Shown: piece after piece, positions 52,581 through 55,551 of the stretch | How positions within the stretch are numbered: position 1 is the first letter of the stretch | Layout: each line of letters opens with the position of its first letter | DNA from: Cyanobacteria bacterium J06581_3 | Lineage (GTDB): Bacteria; Cyanobacteriota; Cyanobacteriia; Phormidesmidales; Phormidesmidaceae | Assembly: GCA_038531675.1 (NCBI GenBank) | Contig: JBCBBK010000008.1 | Location: 30,483 to 94,482, forward strand | Length of the DNA stretch: 64,000 nt | Direction of reading: 5' to 3' | Translations under genes and position numbers: made by a program | Notes under the pieces: generated by a model | Databases searched by the model: none | What the model was told of the DNA's origin: nothing | What the model saw: only the letters and a program-made list of their open reading frames with translations

Positions 52581-52661
52581 ATTAAAGGCCGCTAATCACC
52601 CTGAACAGCAAAGGGCTCGTGATACGATTGTTTGGCAATTTACGTACAGGCGGATAAGTCC

Positions 52662-53165
52662 ATGGTAGATCGTCCTATCAAGAAGAGCGATCGTGAAGCT
52701 GCTGCCCAGCAAACAGACCAGCAAACGGGCCAGCAATCAGGTGGTTCAGAGGCTAAACCAGCTAAGCGCAATGTTCCGCCTCCAATCAAAAAGGCTGACC
52801 GCAAAGATGGTGGCCCAGCTAGTGATCAACCCGTCGATTTGACTCAACCCTACGATCGCGACAAAGATGATCGTGGACGCGGCGGTAGAGACGGTGGCCG
52901 AGGCCGAGGTAAAGGACGCGGGCGTGATAAAGATAGCGCTTCTAAAGGCCCAACGAACCCAGCGCTGATGCGGGGTCCTAAGCCCACTAAGAAAGTTGAA
53001 AAGTCCGAAGAAGCTGTGGAAGAGACCGCTGAAGCAACTGATATAGAAACTGCAACAGAAACTGAGGCGACAGCTGAGACGACTGGTACAGCGGAAACAA
53101 CTGCCGCCGCAGAGACAGGTGCTGAACCCGCTGCGGAAGCGACCCCAGAAACTGCCGCCGAGTGA
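52662..53165 (+). CDS. Low-complexity hypothetical protein (RG-rich middle, Glu/Thr/Ala-rich tail)
   Basis: MVDRPIKKSDR...GRGGRDGGRGRGKGRGR...NPALMRGPKP; ATG at 52662. Confidence 0.75.
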   Translation: MVDRPIKKSDREAAAQQTDQQTGQQSGGSEAKPAKRNVPPPIKKADRKDGGPASDQPVDLTQPYDRDKDDRGRGGRDGGRGRGKGRGRDKDSASKGPTNPALMRGPKPTKKVEKSEEAVEETAEATDIETATETEATAETTGTAETTAAAETGAEPAAEATPETAAE

Positions 53166-53204: not shown

Positions 53205-53243
53205 CATAGAAAAAGGCCGCTATAACAGCGGCCTTTTTCTATG
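53205..53243. terminator. Bidirectional terminator (17-bp stem)
   Basis: catagaaaaaggccgct / agcggcctttttctatg. Confidence 0.9.
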
Positions 53244-53330: not shown

Positions 53331-53388
53331 AAAAAAATTCCCTAGTGCTCAAACGAGCAGCCAGGGAATTGTCAGGGTGCATCTACCA
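53331..53388 (-). ncRNA. NsiR1-like small RNA, copy 1
   Basis: 5' TGGTAGATGCACCCTGA, then hairpin aattccct/agggaatt and a U tract; TCCTGA at 53417-53422 about 35 nt upstream. NsiR1 identity is from recall, not from a search. Confidence 0.65.
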
Positions 53389-53482
53389 GTTAACTATTCC
53401 CAAAAGAATCCTGGTGTCAGGACGAAAGTAAGCAAAAAATCCAGGCAAACGGTCTAGCGAGAATTCCCAGCGAAAATCACCC

Positions 53483-53554
53483 AAAAAAAATCCTCAGCCA
53501 CCTGCAAGAAAGTACGTACAGGAAGGCTGAGGAAACATCAGGGTGCATCTACCA
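53483..53554 (-). ncRNA. NsiR1-like small RNA, copy 2
   Basis: Identical 17-nt 5' end, hairpin tcctcagcc/ggctgagga and a U8 tract; TCCTGA(53584-53589)-N18-GTACTA promoter. Confidence 0.65.
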
Positions 53555-53727
53555 CTTACTAGTACGCCTGTTAGAACGTCCTATCAGGACGGTTCGTACA
53601 CAATAGCAGTCAGTAATTGTGCTGATAAATACACCCTCACCCCGTCAAAATAAGTCAGTTAGAATTTACGCTACGGTGAACTCACCCTAGCTTCATAGCT
53701 GCACTATCGCTTTATTGGCCCATTCTT

Positions 53728-55551
53728 GTGAAGAGATCATTCCTCCTGGCTGCTTTATTGCTGAGCACACTCGTCGGACTGCCCGGCTGCGTACAGCTCG
53801 GCAGCACTGCTCGCCCCAACGACCCGGCACAGTCGGAAACCTCTACAGACGGTGCGACGGTGCTGCGATTGCTATATGGCCGTGTTCCCACGACGCTCAA
53901 CCCTCATCTAGCCAACGGCTTCCAAGACTTTGAAGCTGCTCGCATTATTTACGAGCCCCTCGCCACTTATGAAACGGATGGTCGCATGGTGCCTGTGCTT
54001 GCGGCGCTAGTGCCAACGCCGGAAAATGGAGGAATTTCTGCGGACGGACGCACTGTCACCTGGCGCCTAAAGTCCGATGTGCGCTGGTCCGATGGCCAGC
54101 CGTTTACTGCCGAAGATGTGGTGTTCACCTACGAATTCGTCAGCAATCCGCTCATGGCCGCTGTGACCGAAAAGTACTACGAAGCGATTGAAAAAGTAGA
54201 AGCGGTAGATCCCTTAACAGTCAAAATCACCTTCAAAGCGCCCAATCCATCCTGGGCACTGCCGTTTACTGGGCAAAACGGCATGATTTTACCTAAGCAT
54301 ATTTTCTCGCAGGCGCAAGGTCGTGGCGCTCGTCAGGCAGCGTCTACCCTTTTGCCTGTGGGGACGGGCCCCTATCGCTTCATTACCATCAGCGGAGAGC
54401 GCTGGACTTTTGGGGCCAACGAACAGTTTCGAGAAGGCTCGCCCACCTTTGACCTGGTTGAATTAGAAGGCGGCGTTACGCCCTATGTCGCCGCGAGGCG
54501 TGTACTGCAAGATGGCACTGCCGATTTTGTACACAATTTGCAGCTCAGTATTGACGATCGCGTAGAGCTTGCTACCCAAGGATCCGGGCGGATCGTAGCG
54601 ACCTTTGGTGCCTATGTAGAACGGATTATGCTCAATCCTACCGATCCGAACAAGGTGACCAAAACAGGCGAACGGTCCAGCCTCGAAAATCCACATCCTT
54701 TTTTGAGCGACGTGACCGTGCGTAAGGCGATCGCCCATGGGATTAATCGAGCTGCGATCGCCAACGAAGTTTACGGAAACGCTGGTCAGCGCGTCAATCA
54801 GCTGCTCCCCTTTCCTACCGAATATGTCGACCCAGCGCTTTCCCACCGGTACGATCCTGCGCTGGCCAATCAGCTACTAGATACAGCTGGTTGGATTGAT
54901 AGTAACAACAACGGCATCCGCGACAAAGACGGCGTAGAAATGCGCATCGCGTTTCAAACGCCCATTAATCCTGTTCGTCAGCAAACCCAGCTGATGGTCA
55001 AAGAAGATCTGCAAAAAATCGGTGTCGACGTCTCACTGCGCCGGATCACTGTAGACGATTTTTTCTCGGCAGACCCCAGGCAAACTCGTAGCCTCAACCA
55101 CTTCTATGCCGACATGCAAGAGTACAACACGGGCAGTGATACGCCCGATCCCACTATCTACATGAGCTGGTGGCTGTGCGATGAAATTGCCACGCGCGAA
55201 AACAACTGGCAGAAGCCCAACAATGCTCGCTACTGCAACGAAGAATACGACAAAGTTTGGCAGCAGGCTAGCCAGGAGCTAGATCCTCAAAAGCGTGCCA
55301 AACTTTTTCAACAGCTCAACACTATTTTGATGAATGATGTTGCGGTTATTCCCCTAGTTCGCCGGGCGGTGACTAATGGAATTAGCGATCGCATCACAGG
55401 CGTAGACCCTACCCCCTGGGACGCCAGCACCTGGGATATTGGTACCTGGCAGCTTAGTGATTCACCCGCAAGTTCTGACACAGAAGCAGCTGACCCGCAA
55501 GAATCCGAAACAACTCCAAAAGAAGTGCTTCCAACAGGCGACGAGCAATAA
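53728..55551 (+). CDS. Peptide ABC transporter substrate-binding lipoprotein (SBP family 5)
   Basis: Lipobox LPGC; TLNPHL, IYEPLA, WSDGQPFTAEDVVFT, PVGTGPYR, HPFLSD.TVRKAI. Confidence 0.9.
   Translation: MKRSFLLAALLLSTLVGLPGCVQLGSTARPNDPAQSETSTDGATVLRLLYGRVPTTLNPHLANGFQDFEAARIIYEPLATYETDGRMVPVLAALVPTPENGGISADGRTVTWRLKSDVRWSDGQPFTAEDVVFTYEFVSNPLMAAVTEKYYEAIEKVEAVDPLTVKITFKAPNPSWALPFTGQNGMILPKHIFSQAQGRGARQAASTLLPVGTGPYRFITISGERWTFGANEQFREGSPTFDLVELEGGVTPYVAARRVLQDGTADFVHNLQLSIDDRVELATQGSGRIVATFGAYVERIMLNPTDPNKVTKTGERSSLENPHPFLSDVTVRKAIAHGINRAAIANEVYGNAGQRVNQLLPFPTEYVDPALSHRYDPALANQLLDTAGWIDSNNNGIRDKDGVEMRIAFQTPINPVRQQTQLMVKEDLQKIGVDVSLRRITVDDFFSADPRQTRSLNHFYADMQEYNTGSDTPDPTIYMSWWLCDEIATRENNWQKPNNARYCNEEYDKVWQQASQELDPQKRAKLFQQLNTILMNDVAVIPLVRRAVTNGISDRITGVDPTPWDASTWDIGTWQLSDSPASSDTEAADPQESETTPKEVLPTGDEQ

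Follow-up and report, generated by a model that had tools for sequence, protein, structure and literature searches.

The best-described NsiR1 small RNA (sRNA) is that of Nostoc (Anabaena) sp. PCC 7120, where, according to the accounts of Ionescu et al., 2010 given in later papers (PMC9045159, PMC4030482, PMC6596454), it is encoded by a 12-copy array upstream of hetF whose first copy is antisense to the hetF 5′ untranslated region (UTR). As far as these accounts go, its induction after nitrogen step-down depends on HetR and NtcA and is confined to differentiating cells, and the RNA represses a HetP-like mRNA (alr3234) in trans. In HetR-dependent promoters that are specific to heterocysts, the nsiR1 promoter among them, the -35 element is the DIF1 motif TCCGGA (PMC7377430, PMC4030482), and NsiR1 itself has been called heterocyst-specific in both reviews and primary papers (PMC6596454, PMC9045159, PMC11797042). 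These promoters belong to a class that was recently assigned to HetZ, an extracytoplasmic function (ECF)-type sigma factor according to ChIP-seq, a reconstituted system and cryo-EM (2026, PMC13342950). The consensus for sigma-HetZ is TCCGGA-N16-17-TGNA-N7-9-transcription start point, in which T-35, G-32 and A-30 are replaceable; PatU3 is the anti-sigma of HetZ, and hetZ is directly activated by HetR (PMC13342950). Here, we describe a pair of NsiR1-family genes in a 64,000-nucleotide (nt) stretch of Cyanobacteria bacterium J06581_3 (GCA_038531675.1, contig JBCBBK010000008.1; hereafter the window), a very probably non-heterocystous filament. We think it likely, at a probability of roughly 75%, that these tandem genes are an output of an ancient HetR/sigma-HetZ circuit that predates heterocysts, and that their RNAs act by base-pairing with mRNAs.

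The two units begin with the same 17 nt, TGGTAGATGCACCCTGA, on the minus strand (53388..53372 and 53554..53538; 5′ ends 166 nt apart); beyond this shared start, each has a G+C-rich hairpin of its own and then a U tract. Allowing up to three mismatches, these were the only two matches in the window, with 0.09 expected and none of 100 shuffles giving two or more. Their minimum free energies (-22.7 kcal/mol for copy 1 and -27.1 for copy 2) correspond to z-scores of -4.5 and -4.4 relative to dinucleotide-shuffled sequences. Searched in full with Rfam 15, the window gave exactly two matches above the gathering score, both of them to NsiR1 (RF02399): 50.2 bits for copy 1 (53331-53388) and 49.5 for copy 2 (53483-53554), with a cut-off of 39 and coverage of model positions 1-60 of 60. 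Each copy opens with the invariant 5′ sequence of the family, UGGUAGAUGCACCCUGA, and continues into a Rho-independent terminator, for a length of about 58-72 nt; transcript 5′ ends and sizes are placed from the model and from homologs. The initial annotation had described two minus-strand units 166 bp apart with identical starts, diverging hairpins and U tracts, and had noted TCCTGA 34-35 nt upstream of both (TCCTGA-N18-GTACTA for copy 2). That description is accurate to the letter, and its naming of the shared start as that of NsiR1 is confirmed by the Rfam model. A coding interpretation, in which an AUG at nt 7-9 opens the peptide MHP(D)..., was discarded: the frame beyond it is unconserved and a 1-nt deletion is found in four species. 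Judged by its sequence, the pair is best described as two independent tandem genes for an NsiR1-family sRNA, each with its own predicted promoter and terminator.

The rest of this genome (6.16 Mb, 50.7% G+C, 92.9% complete, in 78 contigs labelled C1, C4 and so on) holds an exact-seed copy at C4:128300, which has CCCGGA at -34, and a variant copy at C11:114712-114770(-), which scores 39.9 bits, begins AUG... and has no TCCKGA at -35. The multicopy, tandem habit of NsiR1 is therefore seen here as two tandem copies together with those on C4 and C11, and tandem pairs recur within the genus. The region upstream of the C11:114770 copy (…gctcggaaaatgctgcatcttggt) resembles that upstream of a copy in another genome (G006, locus L156) and may represent a third promoter class.

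Comparison within the genus provides the evidence that the units are functional. All 25 species-level genomes carry NsiR1 above the Rfam cut-off, and in at least 17 of them the gene lies in a syntenic locus, in the order DUF5331 protein, small open reading frame (ORF), NsiR1 and a gene for a substrate-binding protein (SBP) which is itself only 66-83% identical between species. This locus has two NsiR1 genes in 10 genomes and one in the remainder. Upstream of orthologs of copy 1 (type 1, 18 copies) the genus alignment reads tTTtgTCCTGA, 16 unconserved nt, gGAAtAgTTAa and then the start, and upstream of orthologs of copy 2 (type 2, 10 copies) it reads tCCTGAC, an unconserved spacer and GTAcTAATAgG. 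TCCTGA is invariant in 18/18 type-1 orthologs and TCCTGA(C) is kept in 10/10 of type 2, in each case at fixed spacing. Two conserved blocks around a free spacer are a promoter-like footprint. At the 5′ end of the transcribed sequence, 14-17 nt do not vary across the genus, except for the 1-nt deletion in four species, and RNAalifold predicted 16 base pairs from 17 copy 1 orthologs, five of them with compensatory double changes. Five sister assemblies (L011-L015) are about 99% identical and so carry no signal for covariation. The invariant 5′ core and promoter blocks, together with the compensated stem, argue that these units are under selection rather than relics, and that the earlier view of them as real sRNA genes was correct. 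At four orthologous loci of the same genus (L158, L159, L167 and L168), which have the type-1 gene only, the seed has a 1-nt deletion (UGGUAGAUGCACCC-GAC) and the -10 block is TAGAAGAATTAAG, nearer to the TAGA-type -10 of Nostoc.

The promoters resemble those of the sigma-HetZ class of Anabaena PCC 7120 (PMC13342950, PMC7377430) in having a -35 hexamer at -35/-34, a spacer of around 16 nt, a second conserved block and a start 8-9 nt further on, and in the presence of a HetZ gene in the same genome. They differ in the T at -32, which makes TCCTGA a G-32→T variant of TCCGGA with 5/6 positions matching, and in a match to TGNA that is only partial. The initial annotation had called them DIF1-type, a designation that holds up: the single departure from TCCGGA falls at a replaceable position and the hexamer is kept in every type-1 and type-2 ortholog. 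Among 107 NsiR1 ('class A') copies from other genomes with non-heterocystous names, 84 have TCCGGA or TCCTGA at the -35 position, and the looser YCCKGW starts at -36..-34 in 88/107 (background 3.2%). The two hexamers even alternate at one position inside single arrays, for example in Microcoleus and in a Leptolyngbyaceae metagenome-assembled genome (MAG). It is plausible, from these alignments, that the local sigma-HetZ reads the TCCTGA promoters.

The distribution of NsiR1 follows the same sigma factor. In an even sample of the class (301 genomes from 149 genera, searched with strict filters) NsiR1 was found above the cut-off in 156 genomes, hetR in 155, hetZ in 157 and the HetP family in 69. 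NsiR1 and hetZ occur together in 156 genomes, hetZ alone in one, NsiR1 alone in none and neither in 144; for NsiR1 and hetR the figures are 154 with both, two with NsiR1 only, one with hetR only and 144 with neither. Both NsiR1-positive genomes that lack hetR (G031 and G034) have hetZ. The pattern is unambiguous: NsiR1 travels with HetZ, and follows hetZ slightly better than it follows hetR. The HetP family is absent from 93/156 NsiR1-positive genomes; we had considered it as a marker of heterocyst capacity, a use that its occurrence across many families in the sample does not permit. An exact scan for GTAGATGCACCCTGA in one genome per species gave at least 120 loci, and most of those listed are from filamentous non-heterocystous genera, often in tandem. 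Among the matches listed are Microcoleus, Symploca, Trichodesmium IMS101, Nodosilinea, Leptothoe, Drouetiella, Alkalinema, Planktothrix, Lyngbya, Phormidesmis, Geitlerinema, Roseofilum and Crinalium.

The host genome encodes the components that such a circuit would need. It has hetR (PF03574, 235.7 bits) and, directly upstream, a patX-like ORF of 95 aa with a hydrophobic N-terminus, two RGSGR motifs and a weak match to NF047413. The true HetZ, located by way of the published HetR site of hetZ in Nostocaceae genomes, is at C1:480312-481415 (NF037963, 588 bits; cut-off 550). Its divergent upstream gene is the one that also accompanies hetZ in Nostocaceae, and it is followed by a patU candidate, an ORF of 380 aa with no family assigned. 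The region ahead of this hetZ showed no clear HetR site, and an attempt to find hetZ by scanning the genome for GAGGGG-N5-CCCCTC had led to unrelated genes only. A HetF ortholog, of the family identified next to the NsiR1 array at a Nostoc locus (NF045509, 1470 bits), is encoded on a different contig from the window (C1:244440-246971); both ends of that contig are over 240 kb away, and we found no NsiR1 copy on it. The contiguous nif cluster at C5:145102-157274(-) has the order nifB-S-U-H-D-K with a fused nifEN of 965 aa, and its nifD is uninterrupted; nifB, nifH, nifD and nifK pass their family models, and nifS, nifU and the nifEN fusion were read from ORFs. A HetZ-related paralog at C13:130365-131741 (NF037964, 595 bits, under the cut-off of 612) is preceded, within C13:130275-131741, by TCCGGA-N17-TGAA; this fits the sigma-HetZ consensus well and suggests that sigma-HetZ may drive its own paralog.

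As to lifestyle, Leptothoe sp. PORK10 belongs to the same family as the host (identical hetR coordinates between searches), and a genus-specific 462-nt hetR match is shared by MAGs that carry the labels 'Phormidesmis sp.' and 'Cyanobacteria bacterium J06623_4'. We take these relatives to be thin, Leptolyngbya-like filaments without heterocysts. From this family membership, that is from taxonomy and background knowledge, the host is very probably a non-heterocystous filamentous diazotroph. We infer that its family is distinct from one in our sample (f32) which we take as Nostocaceae because it has the highest-scoring NsiR1 arrays, one to four HetP paralogs (3-4 in 10/12 sampled genomes) and the HetR sites published for Anabaena. 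The initial annotation had asked for hetR, hetF, patX and nif genes, all of which are present (patX as the patX-like ORF), and had placed the pair away from hetF, which is also correct. Its suggestion of an ancestral HetR-linked circuit in a non-heterocystous host is supported by these genes and hetZ, by kinship with Leptothoe and by the class-wide co-occurrence. It needs qualifying in that the link is tighter to hetZ than to hetR and that homologs in non-heterocystous strains were already on record.

Based upon these observations, we favour a model in which an inducing condition, probably nitrogen stress, would lead HetR to switch on hetZ; sigma-HetZ would then transcribe the NsiR1 genes from their TCCTGA promoters, and the exposed, conserved 5′ region of the RNA would pair with mRNAs to modulate their translation or stability. 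The steps from HetR to hetZ to sigma-HetZ are established in Anabaena and are represented here by the presence of the genes, the step from sigma-HetZ to NsiR1 is suggested by promoter architecture and co-occurrence, and base-pairing as the mode of action is proposed by analogy with Nostoc NsiR1 (PMC9045159). The window and PCC 7120 are alike in covariance-model family, invariant 5′ sequence, a length of about 60 nt, a promoter and terminator for each copy, a DIF1-type -35 element, tandem arrangement and divergence from the adjacent gene. They differ in copy number and layout (two tandem plus dispersed copies versus the 12-copy array), in the hexamer (TCCTGA versus TCCGGA), in the absence here of the HetP-like alr3234 family and very probably of heterocysts, and in the neighbour, an SBP_bac_5 gene which occupies the place held by hetF in Nostoc. 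With this neighbour the validated antisense effect on the hetF 5′UTR cannot occur and, since there is neither hetF overlap nor a HetP-like gene, the mechanisms described for Nostoc NsiR1 cannot apply. Given how NsiR1 is distributed, its target is probably a gene that hetZ-bearing cyanobacteria have in common.

Several points weigh against this model. The 5′ ends, sizes and inducing condition of these RNAs are taken from homology, and the non-heterocystous status of the host from taxonomy and background knowledge rather than an observed phenotype. TCCTGA occurs in 0/33 motif-bearing class-A copies of heterocystous-named genomes and in 26 copies elsewhere. Copy 1 (TCCTGA-N16-GGAA-N8-T) and copy 2 (TCCTGA-N18-GTACTA) both fit TGNA only partly, so that recognition by sigma-HetZ is no more than plausible. 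The co-occurrence counts are not phylogenetically independent, and shared ancestry inflates their statistics. No HetP-family gene was detected by tblastn or with the NF037966 profile, an absence that is not absolute in a genome that is 92.9% complete. Finally, target prediction within this single genome yielded no convincing trans target. Strong matches to 7-mers of the 20-nt 5′ region were no more frequent than for some shuffled seeds, and duplex energies with the translation-initiation regions of hetF, the SBP gene, hetZ, the patU candidate, patX and nifH were unremarkable against 4000 background regions. The translation-initiation region of hetR fell only within the 5% tail of that background, and the CUACCAGGGG stretch in the hetF leader, which we considered as a target, did not stand out.

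Could the genes be genuine NsiR1 while TCCTGA is read by another sigma factor or regulator (a group 2/3 sigma factor or NtcA), leaving the sRNA uncoupled from the circuit in a stress or housekeeping role? The confinement of TCCTGA to genomes outside the heterocystous-named set would fit this, as would the two NsiR1-positive genomes without hetR and the differing -10 blocks of the two paralogs, of which GTACTAATAGG looks more like a sigma-70 element. We nevertheless consider it unlikely. The C4 copy of the same genome has CCCGGA at the very same position, the two hexamers interchange within single arrays, G-32 is replaceable for sigma-HetZ (PMC13342950), NsiR1 was never found without hetZ (0/144), and no NtcA-type GTA-N8-TAC was noticed in the conserved footprint, albeit without a formal scan. 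A lower probability still attaches to the idea that the main effect of the pair is in cis, on the divergently oriented SBP_bac_5 gene, as an antisense to a long SBP 5′UTR in the manner of NsiR1.1 on hetF. The geometry is Nostoc-like, with copy 2 starting 174 nt upstream of the SBP start codon on the opposite strand, and at least 17 genomes of the genus have the SBP gene beside NsiR1. However, the spacer between them contains no conserved promoter-like block in the genus alignment, an extra small ORF has been inserted into it in several species, and the C4 and C11 copies have unrelated neighbours.

That the units are non-functional repeats, decaying relics of an NsiR1 array, or terminators whose flank is conserved by chance seems very improbable. 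Having two tandem copies rather than 12, in a genome where both known Nostoc targets are missing, is what decay might leave behind. Against this, neither the 5′ core nor the two promoter blocks vary between species whose adjoining protein has diverged to 66-83% identity, the stem has accumulated compensatory changes, and NsiR1 is kept above the Rfam cut-off in 25/25 genomes of the genus. We retain the view of the pair as functional NsiR1 genes, probably under the control of the HetR/sigma-HetZ circuit.

A second sRNA may belong to the same circuit. Outside the window, tandem copies at C27:22690-22749(+) and C27:22873-22932(+) encode an RNA, termed here class B, which has nt 3-17 (GUAGAUGCACCCUGA) in common with NsiR1, is of similar length, ends in a terminator and occurs in the same genomes. 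It differs in having its own body and a promoter without DIF1. Class B RNAs start with A(A/U)GUAGAUGCACCCUGAUG(G/A)U and have a body characterised by GAUG(G/A)U and a conserved GGAGAGC/GCUCUCC terminator stem. Their promoters combine a palindrome, GGGGTnnnnCCCCTCA, lying around -41..-26, with a -10 of the TATACT or CATAAT type; in this genome the -35-region palindrome is AGGGGGTTACACCCC[T/C]C and the -10 is CATAAT. The box, GGGGGTTACACCCC, is a HetR-type candidate site, and the palindrome fits the HetR requirement of GGG-N5-CCC (PMC4192349) as far as sequence can tell. In Scytonema sp. HK-05 the corresponding box, GAGGGGTCTTGCCCCTC, nearly equals the HetR site of hetP, GAGGGGTCTAACCCCTC (PMC4192349). 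Class B has no Rfam family and scores 25 bits on the NsiR1 model, and a covariance model that we built for it (R1) separates the two cleanly (at least 55 bits for class B, at most 34 for NsiR1). With this model class B was found in 150/301 genomes, 149 of them with hetZ, and it is also present at loci L025, L035, L039, L040, L043, L087, L111, L113, L121 and others. We found no description in the literature that we searched of either the shared 15-nt core, searched as a literal sequence, or the class B RNA.

These findings lead us to a broader and more tentative proposal, to which we would give slightly less than even odds: that NsiR1 is not a heterocyst invention but the RNA output that the sigma-HetZ/HetR circuit has conserved in essentially every cyanobacterium carrying it, with targets that are neither hetF nor hetP-like, and that class B is its undescribed sibling, such that HetR (directly) and sigma-HetZ (via DIF1) would each launch an sRNA with the same seed. 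Individual genomes add some detail to the distribution of class B. One has class B with NsiR1, hetR and hetZ not found (G102), G034 has it beside NsiR1 and hetZ, and a fragmented assembly (G076) has hetR, hetZ and three class B copies with no NsiR1 match. The tandem array of seven to eight copies in Scytonema sp. HK-05 (L087, AP018194.1:32001-40000) is class B and not NsiR1; it has GAGGGGTCTTGCCCCTC upstream of each copy and adjoins a TnpB-family gene.

NsiR1 outside heterocyst formers has been recorded already but never analysed. Table S3 of a 2016 study lists 38 BLAST homologs in 89 genomes (27 heterocystous, 11 not), with a '+' for Trichodesmium (PMC4734099), and RNA162 of Limnospira indica PCC 8005 was called NsiR1-like in a passing remark (PMC8400943). 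Those cases are like ours in being NsiR1-like sRNAs of hetR-bearing filaments without heterocysts; they differ in being a table row and a remark, without promoter analysis, covariation, a hetZ link or distribution statistics. The present analysis adds that NsiR1 is linked to hetZ, that its -35 element here is the variant TCCTGA, that a promoter footprint and covariation are seen at genus level, and that the known targets are absent. The role of hetR, patX and hetZ in filaments that never form heterocysts has openly been described as a mystery (PMC11298460). In Nostoc, the HetR/HetZ programme has its earliest and cleanest reporter in NsiR1, and a promoter-intact NsiR1 in a non-heterocystous diazotroph would be a ready-made reporter of circuit activation, possibly in a subset of cells. 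It is also a defined RNA, and identifying its targets would show what the circuit ancestrally controlled. NsiR1 occurs strictly together with hetZ while both known targets are absent, and these two facts argue that its best-conserved function is still to be discovered.

Table 1. Features of the NsiR1 locus (window coordinates).
Feature	Position	Strand	Remarks
SBP_bac_5 ATP-binding cassette (ABC)-transporter substrate-binding protein gene, divergent neighbour	53728..55551	+	Pfam PF00496, 213 bits
-35 element TCCTGA, copy 2 (type 2)	53584..53589	-	Positions -35..-30; one-base variant of DIF1 TCCGGA
-10 region GTACTAGTAAG, copy 2	53555..53565	-	Genus consensus GTAcTAATAgG; second conserved promoter block
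NsiR1 copy 2, 72 nt, upstream gene	53483..53554	-	RF02399, 49.5 bits
Copy 2, 5′ end	53554..53538	-	
Copy 2, terminator hairpin	53533..53491	-	
Copy 2, U tract	53490..53483	-	
-35 element TCCTGA, copy 1 (type 1)	53417..53422	-	Positions -34..-29
-10 region GGAATAGTTA, copy 1	53391..53400	-	Positions -12..-3; nearly invariant, 16 nt downstream of TCCTGA
NsiR1 copy 1, 58 nt, downstream gene	53331..53388	-	RF02399, 50.2 bits
Copy 1, 5′ end	53388..53372	-	With mini-hairpin GGU/ACC
Copy 1, terminator hairpin	53370..53336	-	
Copy 1, U tract	53337..53331	-	
Convergent small ORF	52632..53165	+	Annotated (167 aa) in sister assemblies; synteny conserved

The genes around the pair are listed in Table 1 where they adjoin it. 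The SBP also has NCBIfam matches of the peptide/nickel-binding-protein type, all below their cut-offs, and beyond it lies a gene for an aspartate kinase. To the left, past the small ORF, which has no family match in profile searches (Pfam, NCBIfam), are genes for the DUF5331 protein and a histone-deacetylase-family protein, and then gyrA. A perfect bidirectional terminator hairpin (AAAAAGGCCGCTGTTATAGCGGCCTTTTT, 53205-53243) separates the small ORF from the NsiR1 pair and gave spurious sub-threshold Thr_leader matches on both strands. At five loci (L146, L147, L150, L162 and L168) an extra small conserved ORF (…GLLYYGYYKWMIQDELKA…), which is absent from the window, lies between the pair and the SBP gene. 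Loci fetched from other genomes show that hetF adjoins NsiR1 in some with non-heterocystous names (Symploca, Phormidesmis priestleyi and a Coleofasciculaceae MAG) and that some Nostocales arrays are not beside hetF; adjacency to hetF is a trait of the model strain's locus and not of the family RF02399. In Nostoc sp. FACHB-280, for instance, a three-copy array adjoins a pair of genes for an ECF-like sigma factor and a DUF1822 protein. Such pairs, in which an ECF-like sigma factor of about 400 aa with a long insertion is accompanied by a DUF1822 protein, occur at C13:159565-162049 and C5:99073-101705 in the host and at L062:973-3410; the two in the host were considered as HetZ/PatU and set aside as ordinary ECF-like sigma factors with DUF1822 partners. 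Finally, on the same contig as the window and about 194 kb past its end, C8:288233-288284 contains a pair of adjacent, nearly perfect palindromes of the HetR type (GAGGGGTTAGACCCCTC and AAGGGGTCTGACCCCTC), spaced by 35 bp, with TCCGGA and a hairpin resembling a terminator (GGGAAGCCGGTAAGCTTCCCTTTCT) directly after them. The sole ORF nearby is a weak match to a REP-associated tyrosine transposase, and from its sequence this site may specify another small transcript controlled by HetR/HetZ.

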